DNA of 64,000 nt from an uncultured bacterium (lineage in GTDB: Bacteria; Eisenbacteria; RBG-16-71-46; CAIMUX01; WJJG01), in contig CAZRWW010000020.1 of NCBI GenBank assembly GCA_964603725.1, forward strand, positions 3,291-67,290, read 5' to 3'. The first letter of the stretch is position 1. The number at the start of each line of letters is the position of its first letter. The position numbers were made by a program, and so were the translations under genes. This document shows, piece by piece, positions 35,515 to 60,302 of the stretch. The notes beneath the pieces are model-generated. The model ran no database searches and had not been told where the DNA came from. It saw nothing but the letters and a program-made list of their open reading frames with translations.

Positions 35515-36648
35515 ATGGACGTTCCGCGCGACCTGGATCTGCGCGCTTTGCTCGCCGACAAGTCCCACTTTCTCCTCGGTCCCCGCCAAACAGGGAAGAC
35601 CTACCTGATCCGCAACACGCTTCAGGACGCTCGCATCTACGACCTTCTCGATTCCTCCGTCTTCCTCGCCCTCAGTCGCAATCCCGGTCAGCTCGGGGAG
35701 GAACTCACCCCTGAGGACCACCTGGTGGTCATCGACGAGATCCAGCGTCTGCCGGAGCTACTGAGCGAGGTCCATCGGCTCATCGAGTCGCGGGGCACCC
35801 GCTTCCTGCTCACCGGATCCAGTGCCCGCAAGCTGCGCCGCGGAGGGGTCAATCTGCTGGGTGGCAGGGCGCGCACGCGCCTCCTGCACCCGCTCACATG
35901 CCATGAACTGGGCCGCGAGTTTGATCTTGGGCGCGCGGCAGAGCGTGGCCTGCTGCCCTCAATCTACTTCTCCGACGATCCCGCCGCAGATCTGGAATCC
36001 TACGCGGGATCGTACCTCCAGCACGAGATTGTGGCCGAGGGCGTCACCCGCAACGTCCCTGCGTTCAGCCGCTTTCTGCGCATTGCGGCGTTGTGCAATG
36101 GAACCATCATCAACTACACGAACATCGCCAACGACGCGCAGGTGCCAAGAACCACCGTCTACGAGTACTTCGAGATTCTGAAGGACACTCTCATTGTACA
36201 CGAGCTTCCTGCTTGGCGAAAGACTTCGAAGAGGAAGCCCCTGGCTTCTTCGAAATTCTACTTCTTCGATGTTGGAGTCGCCGGCGCCCTGCAGGGGCGG
36301 GTCTTCAAGCTCGGGACCCCCGAGTTCGGGCAGGCCTTCGAGACCTACATTCATCATGAGTTGCGCTGCTGCAGCGACTACGCTTCCCGTGAACCTTTGA
36401 GCTACTGGAGGTCAACCTCGGGATTTGAAGTCGATTTCGTCATTGGTGACCACACCGCGATCGAGGTGAAGGCCAAGAGCCACGTGACCGCCAACGACCT
36501 CAGGGGACTACGCGCGCTGGCGGAGGAGAAGAAGCTCAGGAGACTCTTGTGCGTCTGCCTGGAACCTCGCGCTCGGGTGGTCGACGGGATCCGGATACTG
36601 CCCTGGGCTACTTTTGTGGATGCTCTCTGGGCCAATCGATTCGAGTAG
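35515..36648 (+). CDS. AAA+ ATPase, AAA_14 plus DUF4143 family
   Basis: GPRQTGKT, VIDEIQ, LTGSSARKL, KFYFFDVG and EVDF...IEVK motifs. Confidence 0.92.
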   Translation: MDVPRDLDLRALLADKSHFLLGPRQTGKTYLIRNTLQDARIYDLLDSSVFLALSRNPGQLGEELTPEDHLVVIDEIQRLPELLSEVHRLIESRGTRFLLTGSSARKLRRGGVNLLGGRARTRLLHPLTCHELGREFDLGRAAERGLLPSIYFSDDPAADLESYAGSYLQHEIVAEGVTRNVPAFSRFLRIAALCNGTIINYTNIANDAQVPRTTVYEYFEILKDTLIVHELPAWRKTSKRKPLASSKFYFFDVGVAGALQGRVFKLGTPEFGQAFETYIHHELRCCSDYASREPLSYWRSTSGFEVDFVIGDHTAIEVKAKSHVTANDLRGLRALAEEKKLRRLLCVCLEPRARVVDGIRILPWATFVDALWANRFE

Positions 36649-38156: not shown

Positions 38157-40111
38157 ATGCGACGCCTGCACTTGTACTCGAGAGCCTTTGTGATCGCCAG
38201 TGTCCTTGCGCTCGGACCTGCAGCCGCGACGACCTACCTGGTCAGGCCCGATGGAACGGGGCAATTCCCCACGATCCAGGAAGCCATCTGGGCTTGCGCC
38301 GGCGGGGACACGGTTCAGTTGGCCGATGGGACATTCACCGGAATGCTCAACCGCAACATCGACTTCACCGGCCTGGCGATCGTGGTGGAGTCCGCGAGCG
38401 CGGACCCGGCCGCTTGCATCCTCGATTGCGAGGGGGCGGCCGGGGAGGTGCGGCGGGGATTCCTCTTCCATTGCGGGGAGGGGCCGGCTTCGGTCTTGCG
38501 CGGCGTCACGATCCGCAACGGCCTGGCGTACGCCAGCTGAGGGTCGGAGGAAGGCGGCGCGGTCTGCTGCCGCAATGGATCCTCCCCGACGATCGCCAAC
38601 TGCCTGTTTGTCGAGAACGAGGCCGTGGGGCCCGGTGACGCCGTCTACTGCCACACCGCCTCGCCCCACTTCATGAACTGCGGCTTCCGCTTCAATGGAA
38701 TGACCTACAGCGAGGGGGCCGCACTGGCGTGCGACTCGCTTTCGTTTCCGGTCTGCCAGAGCTGCGTCTTCTCCGGAAACGTCGCGAGCGTCGGCGGAGC
38801 GGCCTATGCAATGGAGACCAGCGGACCCAGCTTCATCGATTGCGAATTCTCAGAGAACACCGCTGCCTCTGCCGGCGGGGCGATCTATGTCTGGCGGGCA
38901 GCGCTGACGCTCGTCGGCTGCACCTTCAGCGGCAACTCCGCGACGCATCAGGGAGGCGCGCTCTGCGCCGGGTACAGCTCGCCAGAGATCCACGCCTGCC
39001 TCTTCGAGAACAACACAACCTACTCCAGCGTTGTCAGCTGGGGCGGCGCGCTGTGCTTCAGGAACAGCTGCTCACCTCAGATCACAGACACGCGCTTCAT
39101 CGGAAACACGGCCGGAGGTCCGACGACATTGGTCGCGGGCGGTGCCGTCTGCTTCGCGCACGGATGTGCTCCCGCCTTCCAGAGGTGCACATTCAGCGGC
39201 AACCGCCTTCCGGGTGGAGGGGAAGGGGGCGCGGTCAGCTCCAACATGTCTTCGACTGCCATGTTCGAGGAATGCCGATTCCATGACAATTCCGCACTCT
39301 TCTATGGCGGGGCCGTGTGTCACGGGAACAGCGCCGGGGTCCTCGAGTTCGTGGGCTGCGAGTTCTCCGGCCACAGCGCGGAGTGGGGCGGCGCCTTGGA
39401 CCTGGTCGATGGTGTGGCCGTCTCGAGCGCTGCACCCTGGTTGACAACGCAGGCCAGAATGGGGGCGGCATCGCTGTCGAGGGAAACTCCGCGTGCGAGC
39501 TCGTGAACACGATCATCGCCTTCGGCAACCAGGGACCCGCAGTTTTGTGCGCTGGATCCTCAAACTGTACTCTGTCCTGCTGCGATCTTTACGGAAACGC
39601 GGGCGGCGACTGGGTCGGCGCGATCGCCGGACAGCTTGGTGTGGACGGCAACATCTGCGCCGATCCCCTCTTCTGCGGCGCCCAGAACCCCGAGATGCCC
39701 TATTCCGTGAGCGCGATCTCGCCGTGCGCTCCCGATTACAATCCGGAGTGCGGCCTGATCGGCGCCTGTCCGGTCGGGTGCGGTCTTTCCGCGGTGCGTG
39801 CCGTGGAACCATCCCAGCAGTCGCGGCTGAGCCTGGAGCTGATCGCCGTCGTGCCCAACCCGTTCATCGCGTCTGCGCGTATCGTCTATCGGCTCGGGGA
39901 CCTGGTCGATGGCACCGTCACGCTACGGGTCCACGACGTGGCCGGGCGGCTCGTGCGGTCGCTCTGCCCCGTGGCGCAGGATCCGGGCGATCACTCCCTG
40001 ACCTGGGACGGGCGTGGGACGGACGGCTCGCCTGTGGTTGCCGGGACGTATTTCCTGGAGCTGGCCGCGGCCGATCGGCGGGTCGTGCGGAGGGTCATCA
40101 TCACGCACTGA
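38157..40111 (+). pseudogene. Third beta-helix/FlgD paralog, interrupted by an in-frame TGA (38538-38540) and a -1 frameshift near 39415-39420
   Basis: The frame continues past the TGA (GSEEGGAVCCRNGSSPTI) into ORF 38625; the C-terminal CCDLYGNAGGDW...FlgD part lies in ORF 39317. Confidence 0.8.
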
Positions 40112-40649: not shown

Positions 40650-41828
40650 TCAGCGCATGATCACGATCCGCCTCGCGCATCGCCCGTCCTCAGTCTTGAG
40701 ATTCAAGTAGTACACCCCGCTGGAGACTCCCCTGGGTGTCCAACCCCGTTGATGGTGTCCGGGGGCCAGCCTCTCTCTTTCCAAGCCCTCTACCTGTGCC
40801 CCCGTCACGTCATGCAAGGACACCCGGACGTCTTGCCACGTGGCCAGGTGAATGCTGAACCTGAGCCTTGGCCCCATCGGGTTCCCCTCGACTGTCAAGC
40901 TGGCGTTGCCGGCGGGCACCTCCGGGCTGCGAACCTCGGATTCGGGGCAGCCGATCCACAGCGGGCCGATGAGCTCCGAGCACGGGCTATTCCAAGGCAG
41001 GCAGGGAGAGTCGCTCCACAGCATGTAATCCGCAGGATCGCCGACGAAGAGATGGGGAGGGTGCTGATGGCAGAGAAGAGGATTCTCAAAACTGCTCTCA
41101 CCCTCAAAGACGACTCCGAATCCGGGCAGTCGGGTCGAATCAAGGCAGCAACACGAGACCGTGAACAGCCCCCCCGAACTGATTCCAATGTCTCGGTCTT
41201 GGTTGCCCCAAACAATGCACCGGGTCAAGACCGGAGTCGCCCCACCCTTGGCCCATACTCCTCCCACTGGAGGCGATCCATCGGTTACGCTCAGATTTCC
41301 CGAAATCGTGCAATCCGTAATCAGCGGTGAAGCGTTGTACATGCAGGCAATGCCGCCGCCGTTCCCGTTGAGCAAACCGGCCGATCTGTTTCCTACAATC
41401 ACACAGCGGGAGATGGTTGGTGACGAATTCACGATCGTCAGCGCGCCACCGTCTCCATCGCTGCGTAAGCCCGTCAGGGTGAAGCCTTCCAGGACTGAAG
41501 CACGACTCAAGCCAGCGCAAAACATGAAGCACGGTCCGTCACTGAGATCTCCATGCAGAACCGTGTGCGCGGCACCACTCTGCGACCGAATCACGAGGTT
41601 ACGCTCAGCAAGCGTAATGCCGACGAAATCATACCCGGTGTAGATACCTTCCGCGACCAGCACGGTGTCGCCATCACTCGCCACTGCGATAGCCCCACGA
41701 AGCGTTGGGTACTGAGACGTTGGGACTCTCAGCGTGGCTGCCCCGGAGGATGCAGGGACGAGGAATGGCAGCAGAAGCGCCAGGCGGCGTGCCAAGGACC
41801 AGCTATCTCGCGCGGGACGGTTGTGCAT
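40650..41828 (-). CDS. Fourth beta-helix secreted paralog, lower GC, with Ig-like tail
   Basis: VPTSQYPTLRGAI, GGGIACMYNASPLI, SPC...LIG...GC and GVYYLNL motifs; GGAGG RBS. Confidence 0.8.
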   Translation of the reverse strand: MHNRPARDSWSLARRLALLLPFLVPASSGAATLRVPTSQYPTLRGAIAVASDGDTVLVAEGIYTGYDFVGITLAERNLVIRSQSGAAHTVLHGDLSDGPCFMFCAGLSRASVLEGFTLTGLRSDGDGGALTIVNSSPTISRCVIVGNRSAGLLNGNGGGIACMYNASPLITDCTISGNLSVTDGSPPVGGVWAKGGATPVLTRCIVWGNQDRDIGISSGGLFTVSCCCLDSTRLPGFGVVFEGESSFENPLLCHQHPPHLFVGDPADYMLWSDSPCLPWNSPCSELIGPLWIGCPESEVRSPEVPAGNASLTVEGNPMGPRLRFSIHLATWQDVRVSLHDVTGAQVEGLERERLAPGHHQRGWTPRGVSSGVYYLNLKTEDGRCARRIVIMR

Positions 41829-42034
41829 CACACCCCTCCGCGGCAGTGTCAGGAGCTGCGCGCGTGCGCGCATGCTGCGAGGGTCCGCACGGATGCAAGT
41901 CTAGCTCCTCGGATTGCGAACGGGAAGATCGAAGTCAGGTCTCCGGCAGGGTCGTGGGTGTCTATCGGATGAAGGTGCTTCTAGACCGCGCGTCGCAGGC
42001 CACACAGGCCACGAGGGCGTGGGCGTCGGGGCTC

Positions 42035-43123: not shown

Positions 43124-44317
43124 CTACGCCGCTTCCTGGCTCACCTGCAGCGTCGGCCCATCGGCGGTCACGTTGGGCGTGAGGAACCTCCAGCCGGCCG
43201 GGTCGCGCACCAGGAATCGCACGCTTTCACGCGCCCAGGCCCCGTCGGGCGCGCGCAGCGTCACGACGAGCGGGATCCCGCCGCGGCGGCAAAGCTGCAG
43301 GAAGGTCGCCACCTCGCGGGACGGCTCGACATCGACCACGACCGACTCCGGGTGCCAGCGCTCGAGCGCTTCCTGGGCCCGCGCCGGCCCGGCACCAGGG
43401 GGCACGATGATGTGCAGGATGCGCTGGCCGTCGCCGAGATCGTGGGTCGGCACGCCCGTGACGTAGAGCACCTGAAACCCGTCGGCGGCTTGCGCGGTGG
43501 CCAGGAGCGCGGCCAGCAGGCTCTTGCCCGCGCCGGTCGGACCGAAGATCCCGACGGCGGTCGCGCCGCACAGCATTGTCTCCAGCGCCTCACGATCGGG
43601 TATGTGCTTCTCGACCACCGGCGTGGGATAGGGGCGCACGATCCGATAGCCTTCTTCGCCCCACGAAAGGAAGAGACGCCGGCCGCCCTCGGACAACCAC
43701 TCGTTGCGGGGCGGGCCCTCGATCGCGCGGCCCAAGACGCGCCCGGGGTCCGGCGTCAGGGAAGCATCGAGCTGCTGGGCGGCGCCGTCCGCGCCGACGC
43801 CCATGAGGGGAAAGCCCGCCAGGTGCGCAAGGCTGCGCCCCGGCGCCTGCAGCAACCAGCCGCAGGCCGTGCCCGCGGCGCCGGGCGTGGTCGAGGCGGC
43901 CTGCGCGGTGATCGCGGCGAAGGTGCGCCTGAGCTCGTCGGCCGCCTCCAGGCTGGCGGCGACCTTGCGCTCGCCCTGGCCCGATTCGTCCATGAGCCGC
44001 GCGGTCTCGAGCAGCAGGTTCTCGGTGCCGAGGTCGATCTCCTCGGACGGCGGCACGGGCTCGGCCACGAAGTGGAACTCGCCCTCGGTCCACTTGAGCA
44101 TGTCCATCGCCGCCGCCTGCCCGTTGGTCAGATCGGGCCCGGCGGCGGAGACGATCTGCCCCTCCAGCACGTGCAGCTCGCCGCGCTTCTCGCCGCTCGA
44201 GAGATGCAGCACGCCGGTCTTGCGCCCCAGTAGGAGGAACTGCCCGAGCTCGAAGGGCGAGGCGAACTGCAGGCGTCCCGCCAGGCCGGCGCCGCGCGGC
44301 AACTCGTGCGAGTTCAC
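43124..44317 (-). CDS. DUF4388 (PatA-N-like) domain fused to a degenerate PilT-like P-loop domain
   Basis: ELGQFLLLGRKTGVLHL...WTEGEFHF...LLLETARLMDE, then GPTGAGKS. GGAGG RBS. Confidence 0.75.
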   Translation of the reverse strand: MNSHELPRGAGLAGRLQFASPFELGQFLLLGRKTGVLHLSSGEKRGELHVLEGQIVSAAGPDLTNGQAAAMDMLKWTEGEFHFVAEPVPPSEEIDLGTENLLLETARLMDESGQGERKVAASLEAADELRRTFAAITAQAASTTPGAAGTACGWLLQAPGRSLAHLAGFPLMGVGADGAAQQLDASLTPDPGRVLGRAIEGPPRNEWLSEGGRRLFLSWGEEGYRIVRPYPTPVVEKHIPDREALETMLCGATAVGIFGPTGAGKSLLAALLATAQAADGFQVLYVTGVPTHDLGDGQRILHIIVPPGAGPARAQEALERWHPESVVVDVEPSREVATFLQLCRRGGIPLVVTLRAPDGAWARESVRFLVRDPAGWRFLTPNVTADGPTLQVSQEAA

Positions 44318-44422
44318 AGGCTCCTCCTGGACACCATCCGGTCGTCTCGCGCTCCTCGCGCTGAGCCTTGTCCGGCCTCCGCCACGGCATCCCGCCGCGC
44401 CAGACCGTCACAGGCGCCTGAC

Positions 44423-45496
44423 CTAGGCCGCCATCTGCCCCGGCGCGCTGTGATCATCAAAGCGATCCCGGTGAGACGCGTGCCGCTGGGCCTCGAGCGC
44501 GTCGATGACGCCAGTGCGCAGCAGCTCGGCGATCGAGTCGTCCATGAGTTGCATGCCCAGCTTGCGCCCGGTCTGCATGGCCGTGGGGATCTGAAACGTC
44601 TTGCACTCGCGGATCATCGCCCGCACCGGCGGCGTGCCGACCAGCACCTCGAGGGCGGCGATGCGCCCCTTGCCGTCCTTGCGCTTCAGCAGGCGCTGGG
44701 CGACGACGCCCTGCAGCGACTCCGAGAGCATGGTGCGGATCTGGGCCTGGCTGCCCGCCTCGAAGACGTTGATCAGCCGGTCGATCGTGCCGGCCGCCGA
44801 GGCGGTGTGCAGCGTGCCGAACACGAGCTGGCCCGTCTCGGCCGCCGTGATCGCGAGCGAGATCGTCTCCAGATCGCGCATCTCGCCCACCAGGATGATG
44901 TTCGGGTCCTCTCGCAGCGCCGACCTGAGGGCCGTGTCGAAGCTCTTGGTGTGGCGCCGCACTTCGCGCTGGTTGATCAGCGAGAGCTTGTTGTCGTGCA
45001 CGTACTCGATCGGGTCCTCGATCGTGATGATGTGCTTGCGCTTGGTGCGATTGATGTGATCGATCAGAGCCGCCTGGGTGGTCGACTTGCCGCTCCCGGG
45101 GGGGCCGGTCACGACGACCAGGCCCTTGGTGACGTTGGCGAAGTTGCGCACGGCCTCGGGCAAGCCGAGCTGGTCCGCGGTGAAGATCTTGGTCGGCAGG
45201 ATGCGAAAGGCGCCGGCAATGCCGCGCCGCTGGCGGAACACGTTGCAGCGCACCCGCAGGACGCCGGGCACTTCGTAGCCGAAGTCCGCTTCGCCCTGCG
45301 ATTCGAAGACCGCCCAGTCCTCGGAGGCCATCATCTCGCGCAGGAGATCGGTGAGGGTCTCCTCCGAGAGCGCGTCGTACTCGACGGCCTGGATCTCGCC
45401 GTCCACGCGCAGCATCGGCGACGAACCGGTCGTGAGGTGAAGGTCGGATGCGCCCCGATCCCGCACCAGCTTGAAGATCGCATCGATACGCGCCAA
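44423..45496 (-). CDS. pilT: Type IV pilus retraction ATPase PilT/PilU family
   Basis: ASDLHL, GPPGSGKSTT, ITIEDPIE, ALREDPNIILVGEMRD and GTLHT motifs. Confidence 0.95.
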   Translation of the reverse strand: MARIDAIFKLVRDRGASDLHLTTGSSPMLRVDGEIQAVEYDALSEETLTDLLREMMASEDWAVFESQGEADFGYEVPGVLRVRCNVFRQRRGIAGAFRILPTKIFTADQLGLPEAVRNFANVTKGLVVVTGPPGSGKSTTQAALIDHINRTKRKHIITIEDPIEYVHDNKLSLINQREVRRHTKSFDTALRSALREDPNIILVGEMRDLETISLAITAAETGQLVFGTLHTASAAGTIDRLINVFEAGSQAQIRTMLSESLQGVVAQRLLKRKDGKGRIAALEVLVGTPPVRAMIRECKTFQIPTAMQTGRKLGMQLMDDSIAELLRTGVIDALEAQRHASHRDRFDDHSAPGQMAA

Positions 45497-45645: not shown

Positions 45646-46902
45646 TCACCAGGAGTTCGCGAGGCGGGACGACTCCGCGCCGAAGGCGAGCGCCAGACCC
45701 AGACCGCGCGCGTCGAAGGGATTGAGCGTGCCCGACGTTCGCGCCGCCAGGTCCACGGCCACGGGGCCGAAGGCGCAGCCGACGCTCGCCCCCAGCCGCG
45801 TGCCCTGCACGCCGCCCGCCCCTCCGGCCAGGCGCAGGGCCAGCCAGGGCCGCGGCATCCAGGCGGCGCCGAGCGACAGGCCCAGGCTCCCGCGTCCGAG
45901 CGGCCCGGTGCGCAGCGGGGCATCGAGGGCGGCGCAGGTCGCGGCCCGGCGGGTCAGCCGGCCGGCGCCGAGCACCACGGTCGCGGGCAGACTGGCCGCG
46001 AACGCGCCGGTCCGGGCGATCACCGTGCCCGTCTGCACGAGATCCTCCTCGAGATCGCCCAGGTTCATCTGCGGCACCGTGAAGAAGTCGGTGCGCTCGC
46101 GGACGCCGCGATTCCAGTGGATCCGCCCGATGAGGTCTCTGGCCGCCAGCGAGGCCACCCACTCGCGGCCGAGGTACCCCGAGACGCCCAGGTCGAGTCC
46201 GTAGCCCCAGCCGCCCGTGGCCTGGCGGGTCTTGAGCGTTCCGCTGCCGGAGATCGTCTCGGCGGTGGTCGTCACGCCCCCGGCGGCCTCACGCACCTCG
46301 GCGTGGCCCCAGCCGCGCAGGAGCTTCACCGATGCGCCCGCGTGCACGTGCTCGAGCGGCAGCGCGGTCGCGCGCGCCACCCCCGCGAGCGGACGCGCGC
46401 CGGAGAGCCGGAACTCGGTGAAGGCGAGCCCGCCCCCCTCGGCGTCACGCAGCGCGAAGGTCTCGCCGATGGTGTTGCCCTGCAGCATCAAGCGCAGCAG
46501 CTCCTTCGGCACGCGTAGGCGCGACAGCACGCGCGTCTCCGCGCAGGCGGCCAGGCCGTTCCAGGTGACGCCCAGCACCGCCGCGCTGCCGGACCCGGCC
46601 ATCGTGACGTGGTCCGATCTGACCTTGGCGAGAATCTCTTCCTTGTCTTCTTCGTTCCAGTAGGCGCCGTTGAAGCGGTTGTACTCGGCCAGCGAGTAGG
46701 CGTTGTTCCCCAGGGCGGCGTCGATCGCCAGCCCTTCGATGCCGTCGCGCGGCAGCAGGCTCAGGTTGGCCGGGTTGTACGCGAGGGCCCGGGAACCGGC
46801 GCTGACGGCGGCGAAGGCCGGATCTCGGTCGGCTAGCTGCACGTCCGCGCGGGGAACCGTCCCGATCAGGAACGCCGCGCTCAGAACGGCCGCCCACTTC
46901 AT
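45646..46902 (-). CDS. Putative outer-membrane beta-barrel (DUF5723/TraF-like)
   Basis: Signal peptide, ALAYNPANL, amphipathic strands such as GWGYGLDLG; ATGA-coupled to the upstream gene. Confidence 0.55.
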   Translation of the reverse strand: MKWAAVLSAAFLIGTVPRADVQLADRDPAFAAVSAGSRALAYNPANLSLLPRDGIEGLAIDAALGNNAYSLAEYNRFNGAYWNEEDKEEILAKVRSDHVTMAGSGSAAVLGVTWNGLAACAETRVLSRLRVPKELLRLMLQGNTIGETFALRDAEGGGLAFTEFRLSGARPLAGVARATALPLEHVHAGASVKLLRGWGHAEVREAAGGVTTTAETISGSGTLKTRQATGGWGYGLDLGVSGYLGREWVASLAARDLIGRIHWNRGVRERTDFFTVPQMNLGDLEEDLVQTGTVIARTGAFAASLPATVVLGAGRLTRRAATCAALDAPLRTGPLGRGSLGLSLGAAWMPRPWLALRLAGGAGGVQGTRLGASVGCAFGPVAVDLAARTSGTLNPFDARGLGLALAFGAESSRLANSW

Positions 46903-48977
46903 CGCACGCCCACTTCCAGCGTGGCCACGCCTTGAAACTGCAGATAGTCGGCGCCGCTGAACTCGACGGGGTGTTGGCCCCCGAGCAGATGCACCACGAT
47001 GGCCCCGTGCAACCGCTCGGCGGTGAACAGATGAATCTCGCCCGCCACCACGGCCAGGCTGACGGAGGTGACGCGGCTGGCCGTCACGCGGCCGCTCAGG
47101 GGATCCACCTCGCCCGCCGCAACCCACCCGGTGCGCAAGACCAGATCATCCGCGACGAGGAGATTCTCGGCCGCGAGCGCGAAGTGCACTTCCACCTCTG
47201 CGCTCACCGGGAAGTGATTCTCTATCTCGGCCTCGAGCACGAGGGCGTCGAGGTGGCCGCCGATGCGCTCGCGCACGTTCTGGGCCAGCTCCAGCTCGAA
47301 CGGCTCACCCGTGTGGCTCGTCGCCGGCAGCACGAAGCGCAGCGGAGCCACGACCTCGTAGCGACCCTCGACGCAGTCATCGGCCCGAAGACCCATCGTC
47401 GTTTCGCCATCCCCGACCAGCAGCATCCCTCCGACCGCGACGCTGTCCGGGCGCAGATCGATCAGCTCGAGGATGCTGGAGTTCGCCTCGTTCAGCTCGA
47501 GCCGGGTGTGGGCGGGGCGCCCCGCGGAACCGGCCGGGATGTCGATCCGCATCGGCAGGACGACTTGTCGTTGCGCGGCGCGGCCGACCACGGTCAGATC
47601 GGCGATCCCGCCGGCAGCCGAGGCGTTGTACAAGTCGATCGCCAGGGTGGCCGCCTGGAACGCGGCGCTATCGACCTCGGCGGGAACCTCGACGGCGATT
47701 CGCACGGGGGCGACCACCAGTTCCGTCGCCTGCAGCACGCCCGCCACGGCGCGCAGCTCGATCGCCGCGGGTTCCAGTGCGGCCATGATCCCGTCCTGCG
47801 AGCTGAGGCTCACGATGCCCTCGGTCGCCTCCGTCTCGACCGATATCTGCCAGTCCAGCGGACCGTCCCCCCACGCCTCGAGGCGCTCACCGCCGAGATC
47901 GAGCACCACGCGGCGAGTGGCGCGGGGATCGACCCGCACCTGGGCCGCCAGCGGCAGGCCGGTGGAGGCGACGATCAGGCCCGGCAGCTCGACGCGGGCG
48001 ACCGCGGCGACTGGCAAACTGCTCGTGAGGCGCCACGCGAGATGTCCGCGCTCCACTTCGGCCCAGTCCAGCGCGGCGACCGGGGACAGATCGAGCGTGC
48101 CGCGCACCTCGAAGCGCTGCGGGCGAGCAGGGGCTTCGAGGTAACTCACGCGCAGATCCGAGAGCGCCAGGAACAGGTCGAGGCCATCCGCCGGTCGGAT
48201 CATGATCGTCTCGCCGCCGCTGCCGGGAGATCCACCCTGGATCATGACCGCGAAATGGTTGCCCAGCGCCTGGCCGGCGAGATCCAGAGCGGCGCCGGCG
48301 GTCTGCCCCGGCGCCAGCGGCCTGTCGATCACCCAGACTCCGATGGTGCGCGCGGGATTGCGGCTGATGTCGCGCAGGACAATGCGCAGGGAGTGACCTG
48401 AGGACGACGGCCCGGACAGCGTGACGGGCAGGCGGTTCGTGAGGCTGAAGCGCAGCTCGCCCGAGGCGATCTCGACGCGCACGAAGTCCTCGATCACGCC
48501 CATGTCGATCGGCCCGATGCTGAAGAGGAAGGGATCGATCTGCGCGAGCAAGCCCTCCGACCCGACCGGGAAAGGCAGCACCTCGCCGGGCCGGAAGCGC
48601 ACGGTGTCGGCATACGGCGCATCGAGCGCGATCTGTGCGAGCACGCCGCGCGCGTTCAGGGGGGGCACATCGAGCGCGAGCAGACGCCCCAGCTCCACGC
48701 GGCCGAGCGAGCCGCCGAAGCGCAGCTCCAGCGGCCCCGTGCCGGCGGAATCGGCGTGGATCAACGGGCCCAACGAGTCGGCCAGATCGACGCCGGTGAT
48801 CCGTTCCTGTCCGATCGGGACCTGCAGCCGCGTTGTGAACTGCGGCACCTGCGGCATCTCGACGAGGCAACCAGGTTGCAGCCAGAGGAACAAGACGGCA
48901 GCAGTCAACGGGACGAGCGCGCGGGGGAGCGCCACATGCTGAGAGCGGCCGCGGGCGGCGTTGCTGCTTGCATCCAC
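46899..48977 (-). CDS. Large beta-rich hypothetical lipoprotein
   Basis: GGAGG RBS before GTG, LQPGC lipobox-like sequence, internally repeated beta-rich domains. Confidence 0.65.
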   Translation of the reverse strand: MDASSNAARGRSQHVALPRALVPLTAAVLFLWLQPGCLVEMPQVPQFTTRLQVPIGQERITGVDLADSLGPLIHADSAGTGPLELRFGGSLGRVELGRLLALDVPPLNARGVLAQIALDAPYADTVRFRPGEVLPFPVGSEGLLAQIDPFLFSIGPIDMGVIEDFVRVEIASGELRFSLTNRLPVTLSGPSSSGHSLRIVLRDISRNPARTIGVWVIDRPLAPGQTAGAALDLAGQALGNHFAVMIQGGSPGSGGETIMIRPADGLDLFLALSDLRVSYLEAPARPQRFEVRGTLDLSPVAALDWAEVERGHLAWRLTSSLPVAAVARVELPGLIVASTGLPLAAQVRVDPRATRRVVLDLGGERLEAWGDGPLDWQISVETEATEGIVSLSSQDGIMAALEPAAIELRAVAGVLQATELVVAPVRIAVEVPAEVDSAAFQAATLAIDLYNASAAGGIADLTVVGRAAQRQVVLPMRIDIPAGSAGRPAHTRLELNEANSSILELIDLRPDSVAVGGMLLVGDGETTMGLRADDCVEGRYEVVAPLRFVLPATSHTGEPFELELAQNVRERIGGHLDALVLEAEIENHFPVSAEVEVHFALAAENLLVADDLVLRTGWVAAGEVDPLSGRVTASRVTSVSLAVVAGEIHLFTAERLHGAIVVHLLGGQHPVEFSGADYLQFQGVATLEVGVR

Positions 48978-49257
48978 GTTGGACCTCCCCGCGGCGGCCG
49001 GCGCCAGGGTCCCACGCTGCGCCGCCACCGGCGATTGACCAGTGCGCGCAGGGCCACCGGCCGGGCACCACGAATTCTACCTCACCACAGCCCGGCGGTT
49101 CCGCCCCCATCTGACGCCTGACTCAAGAAGCTCCGCCCGGGTCACGATGTAGGTCAGGAGAACTTGGACCGGGGAGGATTCGAACGTGTGCGAATGGTGC
49201 TTCTGAGGGTTGCGATCGCCATCCCACACCATCCAGCGATGACGAAGGGGGTTTCGC

Positions 49258-49699: not shown

Positions 49700-50590
<891 letters not shown>

Positions 50591-50670
50591 CGCCTCATCC
50601 TCCGCGGATCGCCCGGCGAACGGGCGCGGTCAGCCGCGCGCCCTGCGCGCAGCAGGGCAGGGCCTGACGG

Positions 50671-51303
50671 TCAAGCCATGAGCGCCTTGACGCGCTCGAC
50701 CGCATTGGCCGCATCGTAGGCGTAGCCATCGGCGCCGATCTCGCGCGCGAACTCGGCCGACACCGGCGCCCCGCCGACGACCGTGCGCACGCGGCCGGCC
50801 AGCCCCTCGGACGCCAGTAGCTCGACGACCTGCTTCATCACCGGCATCGTCGTCGTGAGCAGCGCCGACATGCCGATCACCGTGGCCTGCGCATCGCGGG
50901 CCGCCTCGACAAACCGGCGCGGCTCGACGTCCTTGCCCAGGTCGATCACCTCGAAGCCCGCGCCCTTGAGCATGATGCCGACGAGGTTCTTGCCGATGTC
51001 GTGGAGATCGCCCTTGACCGTCCCGATGACCACGCGGCCCGCCATCGGCACGCCCTCGCCCGCCAGGAGCGGCTTGATCACCTCCAGGCCGGCGTACATC
51101 GCCTTGGCCGCCATCAGCACATCGGGCAGGAAGATCTCGTGCGTGCGGAACTGCTCGCCGACGACGTTCATGCCGGCGAGGAGCCCTTGATCGAGGATTT
51201 GGCGCGGCGCGATCCCCTGAGCAAGCGCGTCGCGCGTGAGGGCGAGCACGCGCTCATCGTCACCAGCCTGCAGGTTCCGGGCGATGTCCTTCAGGATTTC
51301 CAT
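50671..51303 (-). CDS. Stand-alone corrinoid (B12-binding) protein, cap plus Rossmann domain
   Basis: GLLAGMNVVG, FLPDVL, GTVKGDLHDIGKNLV (DxHxxG), SALLTTT and GGAP motifs. Confidence 0.95.
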   Translation of the reverse strand: MEILKDIARNLQAGDDERVLALTRDALAQGIAPRQILDQGLLAGMNVVGEQFRTHEIFLPDVLMAAKAMYAGLEVIKPLLAGEGVPMAGRVVIGTVKGDLHDIGKNLVGIMLKGAGFEVIDLGKDVEPRRFVEAARDAQATVIGMSALLTTTMPVMKQVVELLASEGLAGRVRTVVGGAPVSAEFAREIGADGYAYDAANAVERVKALMA

Positions 51304-51374
51304 GATCCTTCCTCTGGGTTGTGGCGCCCCGTTCATCCTCCGGGGTCAGGGGGACCGGGGCGGCAACTGGGCTA

Positions 51375-54550: not shown

Positions 54551-55809
54551 TCACAGGCAATGCCACGGCAAGGCGATGATCTTCTCGTGCAGTCTCAGAG
54601 GGCGGGGGCAACGACAGATGATGTACCCGCAGCGGGCCTGGCGGGGATGCTCGTCCAGGAACGTCAGCAGGTGACGCGCGGCCGACAGACCGGGGTTCTC
54701 GGTCCACTTGATCTGAATCGGCGTGAGTGACGCGCCGCGCTCGATGATGAAGTCGATCTCGGCGCCGTCGCGCGTTCGCAAGTAATGCAGCGATCCGTCC
54801 CCCAGGTACTGCAGCCGCTTCCACAGCTCGATTCCAACCCATTGCTCCAGCAGTGGGCCCGGCGTGGCTCTCACCAGTTCCCTCGCTGGGGCGAGACCCG
54901 CGGCGGCGTGCCGCACGCCAAGGTCGAAGAACAGGAAGCGGGGCGTGGACAGCAGATTCTTGCGGGGACTGCGGGCGAACGCTGGAACCCGGAAGCCCAC
55001 CAGCATGTCTTCGAGGAGCTGGTAGTAGCCCTTCACGGTGGGCTGGGACACACCCGCCTCGCGAGAGATGGCCGCGTGGTTGAGGACCTGTCCTGACTCC
55101 TGAGCCGCCAGTTGCAGGAATCGTACGAACGCGCCCCAGTCCCGCACGATCGATTCTCGGCGGATCTCTTCTTCCAGGTGCACGACGGAGAACGCCTTGA
55201 GCAGATCCCCCCGGTCGCGCTCTTCGCTCGCGACAATGCCGGGGAGGGCACCGTAGGCCAATCTCTCCTCCAGGTCCCAAGCCGGGAAGGGGTCTTGGGG
55301 ACCCATCCCCTTCGGCCAAGGAAATGGAAGCGGGGACAAGGCGTCGCCGCAGAGGGCGTCGCCTGAGGTTGGCGTCGCCGGGGGATGCTCGCTGAGGGTG
55401 AGCGGATAGAGCCGGTGTAGGAAGCTGCGTCCTGGGAGGAGATTGGCGCCGGTCGCGCGCAGCTTGCGTGCCGAGCTGCCGCACAGGATGAATCGCCAGC
55501 GCTTCTTTTCCCGATCGTAGAGGTGCTGAACCCCGTCGAAGATGGCAGGAACGGTCTGCACCTCGTCGACGAACACAAAGTGCCCGCCGCGACGGGTTGG
55601 AAGCGCTCGGCAGGCCTCGACGAACAGACCCGGCCGCGCCAGGAGACGGGATCGCTCGGCGGGGTCCGCTAGATCGAAGACCGTGGCGTCATCCGGTAAG
55701 AGGCGCCTGAGGAGCGTGGATTTCCGGTCTGCCGCGCCCCGAAGAGAAGGTGCACGAAGGGCCGTGCCAGTTTGTCGGCCAGCACATCTGAATACCAACG
55801 ACTGAACAT
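54551..55809 (-). pseudogene. Second AAA_14/DUF4143 ATPase with a 1-nt frameshift inside Walker A
   Basis: ATG 55809 gives MFSRWYSDVLADKLARPFVHLLFGARQTG; GGAAATCC has one A too few to continue as KSTLLRRLLP, which lies in ORF 54551. FVDEVQ and LCGSSARKL motifs follow. Confidence 0.8.
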
Positions 55810-55815
55810 GCCGAG

Positions 55816-55821
55816 ATTCTA
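55816..55821 (-). promoter_or_regulatory. TAGAAT -10 box 6 nt before ATG 55809, suggesting a leaderless transcript
   Basis: AT-rich upstream region and no SD sequence. Confidence 0.5.
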
Positions 55822-55970
55822 CCTCTAAAATCACAATGTCGCTTCACTTTTATCGCCTTAATGCGATGTCGACTTGATTCTCTGCCGTTCCCGGGGGTCG
55901 ATTGCTGTAGCACGCTAAGAAAAAAACACTTACGTCACAGAGGGTGACCTGCCGCCGCCGATCTGCGCTG

Positions 55971-57888: not shown

Positions 57889-58635
57889 TTACCCGCCCAG
57901 CTCCTTCAGTCTCGCGCGGCAGCTCCATTCCCGGCACCGCGCGCAAAACGGATAGTCATTCGCGAACCTGTGGATCGCGGCGGGGCCGGCGATCAGCACG
58001 CCGCTCACCGACTTGATCGGCCGCATCAAGCAGCTCTCGCTGAGCGTGATCCCGACCGCTTCCGGTTGGAGCGCCCGAAACAGCGCCCGCTGCCCGCTGA
58101 CGTTCCATCCGCAGTAGCCGGGGCTGTAGCGCAGGGCCCGCAATTCGCCGCCCGCCGCGCCCATCGCGGCCTCCCACCGCTCCTGCACCACGCCCGCCGC
58201 CCGCTCCGCTCCCTCCGACGCCGTCGCGTCCAGCACCGCGCCGAGCGGATACTCCCCCGCCTGGAACAGCTCCCCGATCCGCGTGGTCACCGCCTCGCCG
58301 GCGGTCACCGCGAAGAGCGCGAGCCGCTCCGCGCGCGGGAAGATCTCCTCGAGCGGCGTTTCGGGCTCGTTCCCGCCCTCGCCGCGGTAGACGCCGGCGA
58401 ACTCCTCGCGCGTCACATCGCGCCACAGGCCCGCCGGCTGCGCCAGCTCCAGAAACAGCGCGCCGGCGGCCGCCAGCAATCGGGATAGCCGCTCATCGGG
58501 CGCTGGCGTCGCGCCCCCCGCGGTCCGCGCCGAGTCCGGCGCCCGGCCCGCATCCGGGGGCCGGCCCAGCGCCCGCAGCACGTCCTCCGCGCTGGGAATG
58601 ATCGCTTCGGCCGCGATGGGGACGATCTCGCTCAC
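57889..58635 (-). CDS. Stand-alone MetH SAM-dependent reactivation domain protein
   Basis: FAVTAG, RYSPGYCGW...GQRALF...GITLSESCLMRPIKSVSG and C-terminal CxxCxxxxC; GTG overlaps the MttB stop (GTGA). Confidence 0.88.
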   Translation of the reverse strand: MSEIVPIAAEAIIPSAEDVLRALGRPPDAGRAPDSARTAGGATPAPDERLSRLLAAAGALFLELAQPAGLWRDVTREEFAGVYRGEGGNEPETPLEEIFPRAERLALFAVTAGEAVTTRIGELFQAGEYPLGAVLDATASEGAERAAGVVQERWEAAMGAAGGELRALRYSPGYCGWNVSGQRALFRALQPEAVGITLSESCLMRPIKSVSGVLIAGPAAIHRFANDYPFCARCREWSCRARLKELGG

Positions 58636-60092
58636 GCCTCCCGCTCCGGCAGCGGCTCGAGACCGTACTTGCGCGCCTCCCGCGCCATGACCTCCTCGAT
58701 CCCTGCCCGCACCGCTGACCCCAGCCGCGGCGGCTCCCAGGCGTCCAGCATCCGCGCCACCTCGGAGTGCGCCCGCGCCCGCAGCGTGCTGCTGCCCTCG
58801 GCCTCCCAGCGCGCGCGATTGGCACGTTCGATGACGGGCCCGGGGTAGTAGTGCTCGGTCTTCAGGTGCTTGCGCGTGTGCTTCGAGATCAGCAGGTGCC
58901 CCTCGGCCAGCATCTCCTCGAAGCGCGGCAGCGCGGGGAAGTCCTCGCGCGGCGTGATCCCGCGAGCAATCCGCTGCGTCATCCCGACGATCTCGTTGTC
59001 GACGACCAACTTCTCCAGGCTTATACAGCTCTCGAAGTCGAGCATCCCCGGGCCCGATACGCTGTTGATGCCGGAGAGGACCGCCAGAGTCGCGCCCATC
59101 GACGACTCGAGCCCCGCCTGCGCGTCGAGCTGCTTGGCGTCGCTCAGCGAGATGTACGCCTGGGTGGGGAGACCCAGGTGCTTGCCGATCTCGTTGTAGG
59201 CGCAGTCGATCATCATCGTCTCGGCGGCGCCCATGGGGGTCGTCTCGAAGCGGATGTCGAACGCCGCGGGCGAGCCGCCGTAGAGCACGGGACACCCCGG
59301 CCGGGCGAGCTGACTCATGACGAGGCCGCTCAGTGTCTCGGCCGTATGCTGCACGAGCGAGCCGACCAGCGTGACCGGGCCGATAAAGCCGGCCAGCGGC
59401 ATCGAGATGTACTCGACCGGGATCCCGGCGCGCGCGCAGTCGAGCAGATTCTGCGACGTCACCTCGCTCCACTTGAGCGGCGCCGTGGGGCAAACCGAGA
59501 AGATCGTGAGCGGCTTGGCTTTGAGCTCGGCTTCCGTGCCGCGCACCGCGACCTGCAGCGACTTCATCGTCTCGAACGACGGGATGGTGAAGGCGCCGGT
59601 GACAATGGGCTTCTCGCAGTGGAGAAGGCTCAGGTAGAGCCGGTAGCTGTCCTGCATCGGCTCGGGCACGTCGAAAGCGATGAAGGCCGTGCTCTGCGCG
59701 GGAATGTGATCCAGCTGGCTGACGAGCTTCGCGTAGCGCACGTAGTCGACCGTGTGCGGGGCGCGCATCTGACCTGTGTGATGGTCGAGCACCGTGATCC
59801 CACAGGAACCCGGCGTGAAGTAGACATTGTCGCCCTGGAAGTCGTGGGTCTCCTGTCCGAGCACGTCGTACAACTTGAACGAGCGGGGCGCGGCGGCGAT
59901 CGCCCGATCGATGAGCGCACCGGGGAAGCGCACGCGGCGCGTCGCCTCGTCGACCTGCGCGCCGTGGTCGGCCAGGAGCGCCCGGGCGCGCTCGTTCTGG
60001 ATCTCGCACCCCAGGCGGTGCAAAACGTCGCGCGCTTCGTCCAGGATCCGGGTGATCAGCTCGTCGTCCAGAAAGCGCAGCTTGGGTCTCAC
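58632..60092 (-). CDS. mttB: Trimethylamine methyltransferase (MttB) superfamily protein, non-pyrrolysine
   Basis: PLKWSEV, PVTLVGSLVQHTAETLSGL, DAKQLDAQAGLES and GPGMLDFESCISLEKLVVDNE motifs; no in-frame TAG; GAGGAG RBS. Confidence 0.93.
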   Translation of the reverse strand: MRPKLRFLDDELITRILDEARDVLHRLGCEIQNERARALLADHGAQVDEATRRVRFPGALIDRAIAAAPRSFKLYDVLGQETHDFQGDNVYFTPGSCGITVLDHHTGQMRAPHTVDYVRYAKLVSQLDHIPAQSTAFIAFDVPEPMQDSYRLYLSLLHCEKPIVTGAFTIPSFETMKSLQVAVRGTEAELKAKPLTIFSVCPTAPLKWSEVTSQNLLDCARAGIPVEYISMPLAGFIGPVTLVGSLVQHTAETLSGLVMSQLARPGCPVLYGGSPAAFDIRFETTPMGAAETMMIDCAYNEIGKHLGLPTQAYISLSDAKQLDAQAGLESSMGATLAVLSGINSVSGPGMLDFESCISLEKLVVDNEIVGMTQRIARGITPREDFPALPRFEEMLAEGHLLISKHTRKHLKTEHYYPGPVIERANRARWEAEGSSTLRARAHSEVARMLDAWEPPRLGSAVRAGIEEVMAREARKYGLEPLPEREA

Positions 60093-60302
60093 GTCTCCTC
60101 CCCTTCTGTCGCTGGCCACCCCAGGGCCCCAGCACGCGCACGGCGGGACCGGCCCCGGGCTTCAAGCCCAGGAGCCTACCATCCCCAGCCCCCGCCGCGC
60201 TATCCGGCCCGCCCTCCGGCCGATAGCCGGCCGCACGCCGCGGCTCGCCCGGCCGCGGGCGGCCCGACCGTCCGCCCGAACGGCCGCCCGACCGGCCGCC
60301 CA

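Follow-up and report, generated by a model that had tools for sequence, protein, structure and literature searches.

A degenerate PilT-like protein fused to a PATAN domain is encoded directly downstream of pilT and is a candidate accessory subunit of the retraction motor

Here we describe a pair of genes in a 64,000-nucleotide stretch of DNA (hereafter the window) from an uncultured bacterium of the Eisenbacteria lineage (GenBank assembly GCA_964603725.1, contig CAZRWW010000020.1, positions 3,291 to 67,290). The first gene is pilT, and the second encodes a protein, here called the partner, in which a PATAN domain (DUF4388) precedes a PilT body, made up of an N2D-like and a RecA-like domain, whose catalytic motifs are degenerate. 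We are highly confident of this structural description. The evidence laid out below points to an accessory subunit of the retraction motor that has so far gone undescribed, and we consider it rather probable that the partner acts as a non-catalytic adaptor or regulator associated with PilT.

The pilT gene and the gene that follows it

An earlier note, made by reading the sequence of the window, had described both open reading frames (ORFs), and both were recovered on the minus strand where it had placed them, head to tail, with pilT first and the partner gene second (Table 1). The spacer between them carries a Shine-Dalgarno sequence, AGGAGG, at 44323-44328, 5 nucleotides (nt) ahead of the GTG start of the partner gene at 44317, and a terminator scan of the same spacer found no terminator-like site or hairpin. 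The two genes are probably co-transcribed as a single two-gene operon.

The assignment of the upstream gene to pilT was borne out. Its product scored 452 bits against TIGR01420 (cut-off 319.1) and 151 bits against PF00437 (E 4e-44, cut-off 24.9), is ~60% identical to the PilT of Pseudomonas aeruginosa (3jvu; phmmer E 1.6e-109) and aligned over its full length with the P. aeruginosa, Geobacter and Aquifex PilT structures. The Walker A motif (GPPGSGKS, K137), the Asp box (E160-D161-P-I-E164) and the Walker B Glu (E205) are all kept. The only departure from the canonical motifs lies in the His box, ETGQLVFGTLH, where the first His is replaced by Gln (Q223, window 44828-44830) and the second is present (H230); this segment reads ETGQL in the window PilT as against ETGHL in 4/4 solved reference PilTs. 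Judged by its sequence, the product of 44423-45496 is a bona fide PilT.

The partner carries a PilT-like body behind a PATAN domain

The PATAN match of the partner spans positions 1-120 of the 122 in the PF14332 profile, and in an alignment of 21 sequences this domain is the best-conserved region of the family. No match to a CheY-like receiver (Response_reg) was found in the protein, and Pfam and NCBIfam hold no model for its C-terminal two thirds: neither PF00437 nor TIGR01420 matched even at E<=1, the matches obtained being short, generic and confined to the P-loop. BLASTP of the partner against PilT was not significant either, returning P-loop fragments only (E 0.2-0.4).

The earlier note had aligned the C-terminal half of the partner with the adjacent PilT by eye, and profile comparison with hhalign reproduced this alignment column for column. 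At full length, the partner family (alignment A1) matched its cognate PilTs (A2) with a probability of 81% (E 1.2e-5), while the C-terminal 250 residues (A3) matched them with 89% (E 2.3e-6, 180 columns). The paired columns, partner first, include YRIV/FRIL, GPTGAGKS/GPPGSGKS, RWHPESVVVDV/REDPNIILVGE and TLRA/TLHT. When 1.84 billion representative proteins were searched with a hidden Markov model (HMM) of A3, six clusters fell below E 1e-30, all of them family members; of ten weak matches that were scanned (E 5e-6 to 1e-3), five were PF00437 (T2SSE) proteins, aligned over 120-190 profile positions. Because BLASTP between the two proteins is insignificant and the Pfam T2SSE model does not match the partner, the likeness to PilT has to be called remote, yet as a sequence similarity it is real.

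The AlphaFold2 (AF2) model of the partner, with a mean predicted local distance difference test (pLDDT) score of 81.7, was compared with the PDB by Foldseek. The top 50 matches were all ATPases of the PilU/PilT/DotB/CpaF/FlaI/PilT2/PilF/VirB11/GspE/PilB type, with no SIMIBI protein among them. The best was PilU (9n32_A, E 4.6e-9, 276 columns), and the alignments, of ~270-276 columns, covered both PilT domains. An unrelated P-loop family with an intact catalytic Glu, the outcome that would have contradicted the earlier note, was not what emerged: the domain models as a PilT/PilU-type ATPase and its Glu position is non-acidic.

On one point the earlier note needs correcting. It held that the DUF4388 domain replaces the N-terminal domain of PilT; in the model, residues ~150-229 form a helix, three strands, a helix and three strands, which is the order of the PilT N2D, and the hhalign match reaches into PilT residues 55-100. 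This N2D-like domain, with W154, G160, W207 and R214 invariant, has been kept, and PATAN has been added in front of it. At the other end, the RecA-like domain stops after the His-box strand and lacks the C-terminal helical subdomain bearing the AIRNLIRE motif, in place of which the partner has one helix and a beta-hairpin.

The catalytic motifs of the partner are degraded

Motif columns were counted over 21 orthologues (A1), drawn from 22 homologue clusters that are 41-92% identical to the window protein. The Walker A Lys, present in the window protein, is lost in 4/21 (Arg in three, Asn in one). In the Asp-box region, which reads VTGVPTHDLGDG (TGVPTHDLGDG), the acidic EDPxE pattern is gone and one or two acidic residues remain; P290, D293, G297 and H302 are invariant there, and D296 nearly so. 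In the Walker-B region the invariant D329 is aligned with G204 of PilT, and the catalytic Glu, E205, with V330. That column holds Asp or Glu in 0/21 orthologues and is always hydrophobic or His. The second His of the His box (H230 in PilT) is R355 in the partner; it is replaced in 20/21 orthologues, Arg being found in most and His, Gln and Gly in one each, and the first His position is lost as well.

The losses of the Walker B Glu and of the His box that the earlier note had reported in the single protein recur in the family, and its description of the protein as catalytically impaired is further upheld by sister families that have no P-loop and have kept both the fold and the pairing with pilT (see below). 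It is very unlikely, on these motifs, that the partner hydrolyses ATP in the manner of PilT, and it may retain nucleotide binding.

Table 1. Coordinates of the gene pair and of the regions of the partner protein within the window.
Feature	Position	Strand	Basis and remarks
pilT	44423..45496	(-)	357 amino acids; ORF call and TIGR01420/PF00437
pilT–partner spacer, 105 nt	44318..44422	(-)	sequence reading
Partner gene, PATAN-fused degenerate PilT-like protein	43124..44317	(-)	397 amino acids; ORF call; stop 43124-43126
PATAN/DUF4388 domain, residues 13-111	43985..44281	(-)	PF14332 E 1.2e-19, 71 bits (cut-off 25); pLDDT ~80-90
Linker, residues 112-149	43871..43984	(-)	helix 114-137; pLDDT <50 at 127-148; columns vary among orthologues
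PilT N2D-like domain, residues ~150-229	43631..43870	(-)	AF2 secondary structure, hhalign, Foldseek
Degenerate RecA-like ATPase domain, residues ~230-372	43202..43630	(-)	hhalign, Foldseek, length compared with PilT
Walker A GPTGAGKS, residues 259-266	43520..43543	(-)	intact in window protein (K265)
Walker-B region RWHPESVVVDVEP, residues 320-332	43322..43360	(-)	hhalign columns
His-box remnant GGIPLVVTLRAP, residues 346-357	43247..43282	(-)	hhalign; reads GGIPLVVTLRA
C-terminal beta-hairpin, residues 373-397	43127..43201	(-)	strands 376-384 and 389-394; ends -Ala-Ala

The partner is linked to a distinct group of PilTs

A pairing with pilT that is not conserved would, by the earlier note, have refuted its reading; the pairing turned out to be very strongly conserved. 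In the family of the window, pilT lies directly upstream of the partner gene on the same strand in 11/11 distinct loci. In a search with the window PilT, the paired PilTs (65-90% identity) passed gradually into other PilT clades, at 57-64% identity, and each of six PilTs from these wider clades (P0080, P0111, P0122, P0094, P0104 and P0156) has a PatA_N protein of 442-489 residues encoded directly downstream on the same strand (6/6 loci), which brings the assembly and genome loci to 17/17. Scanning of metagenomes with PATAN-domain patterns gave 52 loci, 47 of them informative, the other five having <160 nt of upstream sequence; pilT was found immediately upstream on the same strand in 45/47, and two were without it. 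Within the family the two genes overlap by 17-20 nt (L001, L006) or are separated by up to ~120 nt, over all comparisons the gap reaches a few hundred nt, and the genes around the pair differ between most loci. A match from the Gemmatimonadales (L016) was rejected as a family member and left out of the counts, the match being to PATAN only and no pilT being nearby.

The partners found in the wider clades belong to the same structural group. A sister family of 21 sequences (A5) aligned with the window family over 366 columns (hhalign 99.8%, E 7.7e-28) and its AF2 model (pLDDT 81) matched DotB, PilT, PilU and PilB in the PDB at E 1e-14 over ~300 columns, and no Walker A motif is present anywhere in the A5 alignment. 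Likewise, the partner encoded at locus L022 aligns with A1 (98.9%, E 3e-17) and has GPLALDRT in place of the P-loop. Among the families compared, GxxxxGK[ST] is kept only in the branch of the window, whose named records come from Candidatus Eisenbacteria/Eiseniibacteriota. The family of the window is narrow and belongs, as a single branch, to a far wider group. Since the P-loop is confined to that branch, the conserved function of the superfamily cannot be ATP hydrolysis; conservation lies in the fold, in PATAN and in the linkage with pilT. Across the compared loci the partner also diverges faster than PilT (41-92% as against 65-90% identity), which is what one would expect once catalysis no longer constrains a protein.

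A Gln-variant His box and -Ala-Ala ends recur in the pair

The His-to-Gln change of the window PilT is shared by its relatives: the residue at the first His of the box could be determined in 43 of 52 distinct paired PilTs, and in 42 of these it is Gln. The P. aeruginosa PilT variant H222A shows lowered, though not abolished, twitching and was reported to detach more frequently from the pilus machine (PMC10187167). One may speculate that a tethering partner compensates for the His-to-Gln change. One PilT with His at this position has a PATAN partner, too.

A second shared trait lies at the C-termini. The window PilT ends in -MAA and its partner in -Ala-Ala (44423-44431 and 43127-43132, respectively), and such ends were found in 38/52 paired PilTs and in 19/21 partner orthologues, in both proteins behind otherwise variable tails. 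Over the window and loci L001-L022, 25/164 distinct ORFs end in -Ala-Ala, 22 of them coding for PilTs or partners, which leaves 3/~140 among other ORFs; no PilT with an ETGH-type His box ends in this way among the best 120 PilT homologues. A C-terminal Ala-Ala is the classic feature recognised by ClpXP, as in the ssrA tag and in Caulobacter CtrA. The shared ends of the pair resemble this feature and suggest a common proteolytic control or a common docking motif.

Neither trait is a strict prerequisite for having a partner, as the H-type PilT mentioned above (P0156, locus L022), which lacks the -Ala-Ala end, is followed by a PATAN protein. A 625-residue 'PilT' (P0070) was considered as a possible fusion of PilT with its partner and rejected: its sequence is that of PilT run together with PilU, by read-through or gene fusion, its motifs are canonical, and it bears no relation to the partner.

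Genes around the pair

Directly upstream of pilT in the window lie a DUF5723 (TraF-like barrel) protein gene and a gene for a 709-residue protein without a family match (45646-49028, minus strand). A DUF5723 gene and a gene for a 680-710-residue protein recur in a close relative (L007, 63% identity) and are absent from more distant loci, which places them outside the conserved core. In other relatives, the pair is preceded by regulatory genes: a single-domain response regulator, a sigma-54 activator and two DUF507 genes at L001 (3604-6718) and L006 (1854-4664), and a GAF-sigma-54 activator with a Ser/Thr kinase of ~1100 residues at L017/L018 (1-4916). These regulators may be inputs that control the pair.

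Other neighbours in the window include a GAF protein, beta-helix proteins, a hemerythrin and a corrinoid methyltransferase cluster. The last (49700-51336 and 58632-60119, minus strand) comprises an MttB-family methyltransferase (495 residues), a B12-binding protein and a homocysteine S-methyltransferase-type protein; an S-methyltransferase gene with B12-binding or Met_synt_B12 genes adjoins the pair in L005 and L007 too. Two right-handed beta-helix/PMP-repeat proteins (38625-40111, plus strand, and 40650-41873, minus strand) have similar C-terminal ends, ...YFLELAAADRRVVRRVIITH and ...YYLNLKTEDGRCARRIVIMR, which look like a common sorting domain; no Pfam match was obtained there at E<=1e-3. 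The window also encodes two paralogous ATPases of the AAA_14 + DUF4143 type (35515-36648, plus strand, and 54551-55834, minus strand).

A proposed role for the partner

We hypothesized that the pair would consist of a working hexameric retraction ATPase of the PilT type and a non-catalytic PilT paralogue serving as its accessory subunit. PilT-like ATPases assemble through contacts between the N2D of one subunit and the C-terminal domain of its neighbour, and the partner keeps both domains. Its PilT-like body would thus dock on the PilT ring or intercalate into it, while the PATAN domain, carried on a flexible linker, would tether or steer the ring at the pilus base or the cell pole. With the pseudo-PilT body holding PilT and PATAN holding the platform or the pole, such a bridge could determine whether the retraction motor is recruited, retained or sequestered, and hence when and where retraction occurs. 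In the subfamily of the window, where Walker A is intact and the Walker-B Asp invariant, these motifs suggest that the bridge might still be tuned by nucleotide that is bound but not turned over. From this we infer a role of the kind that the earlier note had put forward, that of a 'regulatory subunit' or a 'polar-targeting adaptor'. In all of this we assume that the pair is linked to an actual type IV pilus.

The choice of the platform as a candidate target draws on Synechocystis, where the PATAN domains of PixG, PixE and LsiR bound PilB1 and the N-terminal domain of PilC in yeast two-hybrid assays (bioRxiv 10.1101/2021.06.11.447907). A bolder version of the model can be formulated, which we regard as possible and no better than tentative: the pair would represent an unrecognised and widespread type of retraction motor, in which a Gln-variant PilT works obligatorily with a PATAN pseudo-PilT that couples the ring to the PilB/PilC platform or to the pole and sets the switch between extension and retraction, both proteins perhaps being degraded together through a shared Ala-Ala degron of the ClpXP type.

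Four observations weigh against the proposed role. First, no pilB, pilC, pilM-Q or pilin genes were found in the scanned 25.9-62 kb of the window, so that the remark in the earlier note that no other pilus genes are nearby holds for this range. Second, the predicted template modelling score (pTM) of the AF2 model is 0.62, meaning that the relative placement of the partner domains is uncertain. Third, the perfect Walker A and the invariant Walker-B Asp of the window protein leave room for some non-canonical residual catalysis. Fourth, neither PilT1 nor PilT2 was bound by the Synechocystis PATAN regulators (bioRxiv 10.1101/2021.06.11.447907), which makes PATAN unlikely to be the part of the partner that contacts PilT.

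Alternative readings

The first of these observations raises the question of whether the pair serves a pilus. It could instead serve, for instance, another PilT-driven apparatus, for secretion, DNA uptake or gliding-type movement, or form a self-contained signalling module that has the partner for its specific adaptor. The pair is an 'orphan', without flanking pil genes at any of the loci looked at, and the barrel-like DUF5723 protein and the 680-710-residue protein lie just upstream of it in the window and in the closest relative examined, both of which favour such a reading. We nonetheless think it unlikely, since the PilT is ~60% identical to that of P. aeruginosa and well over the TIGR01420 cut-off, and the upstream barrel pair is not conserved at more distant loci. 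That pilT is often unlinked to other pil genes in well-studied bacteria also weighs against it.

A little less likely still is that the partner works as an active accessory motor ATPase, an analogue of PilU, using non-canonical catalytic residues such as D293, D296, D329 or E331. Here the Walker A motif, intact in the window protein and in 17/21 orthologues, would be in favour, as would the conservation of D329 and D293 (invariant) and of D296 (nearly so), the best Foldseek match being PilU and a gene position like that of pilU in pilTU operons (PMC13584747). Against an active enzyme stand the Arg or Asn at the Walker A Lys in the remaining four orthologues and the absence of a P-loop from sister families with the same pairing and fold. 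The catalytic-Glu column, moreover, is never acidic, neither His box nor C-terminal subdomain is present, and the partner evolves much faster than PilT. The reading of the partner as a non-catalytic adaptor or regulator is the one that we retain.

Finally, the C-terminal module might be another P-loop NTPase, of the ArsA/MinD (SIMIBI) or KaiC/RecA type, fused to PATAN and next to pilT by coincidence. The best PDB matches by sequence only were indeed to ArsA/Get3 (E 5.5e-4), in which GKGGVGKT...DPAHSLSD resembles GPSGSGKS...VPTHDLGD, and ArsA and KaiC proteins were among the weak HMM matches. We consider this highly improbable: the ArsA matches, like one of the two KaiC-type matches, are confined to ~40-55 residues at the P-loop, as against the much longer T2SSE matches, the structural matches are all to secretion ATPases in alignments that include the superfamily-specific N2D, and a pairing in 45/47 loci is not a coincidence. 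An origin from SIMIBI/ArsA proteins, suggested when V-ATPase B and ArsA/Get3 topped the PDB sequence searches, made with the single sequence and with the profile, through short P-loop matches, was accordingly rejected on fold and match length.

Significance and comparison with known systems

Homologues of the partner are named in databases only as 'DUF4388 domain-containing' or 'hypothetical', and a full-text literature search returned no description of a PATAN–PilT-like fusion or of the gene pair. The pair is built from two known parts, the PilT-superfamily fold and PATAN, and is a variation on them rather than a system of a new kind. Research on type IV pili has yet to settle how PilT comes to the pilus base and leaves it again, and the accessory proteins known for PilT are active paralogues (PilU) on the one hand and unrelated regulators on the other. 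The partner combines a dead PilT paralogue with the one type of domain for which binding to PilB and PilC has been demonstrated, and its gene is tied to those of a distinct PilT subclade, which makes it a candidate coupler of motor and platform. These results also offer a tentative function for a region that has lacked annotation, the C-terminal two thirds of many 'DUF4388 domain-containing proteins', and the natural series from P-loop-retaining to P-loop-less members provides material on how a motor subunit turns into a scaffold.

Four known systems resemble the pair in part. One is PilU of Pseudomonas, Vibrio and Neisseria, a PilT-dependent accessory retraction ATPase thought to act through or with PilT. 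Like the partner, PilU is a paralogue of PilT whose gene follows pilT immediately on the same strand; the two proteins have their two-domain fold in common, and a PilU structure (9n32) is the best structural match. PilU, however, is active, with all catalytic motifs and no extra domain, whereas the partner has neither the catalytic Glu nor the His box nor the C-terminal subdomain, carries PATAN and falls outside TIGR01420. The cyanobacterial PatA-type proteins PixG, PixE, LsiR and PilG share the N-terminal domain family (PF14332) with the partner. In these proteins PATAN is joined to a CheY-like receiver that reads phosphorylation, while in the partner it is joined to a degenerate PilT body and locked to pilT.

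FlaH/ArlH of the archaellum, a RecA-superfamily protein, has a Walker A and an incomplete Walker B motif, binds ATP and associates with the PilT-superfamily motor ATPase FlaI/ArlI, which it regulates; it is KaiC-like rather than PilT-like, carries no PATAN and is part of an archaeal machine. Similar in concept, TadZ/CpaE of Tad pili combines a localisation or receiver-like N-terminus with an atypical P-loop domain and places the pilus ATPase at the pole, its ATPase domain being of the MinD/ParA type (SIMIBI), whereas that of the partner is of the PilT type.

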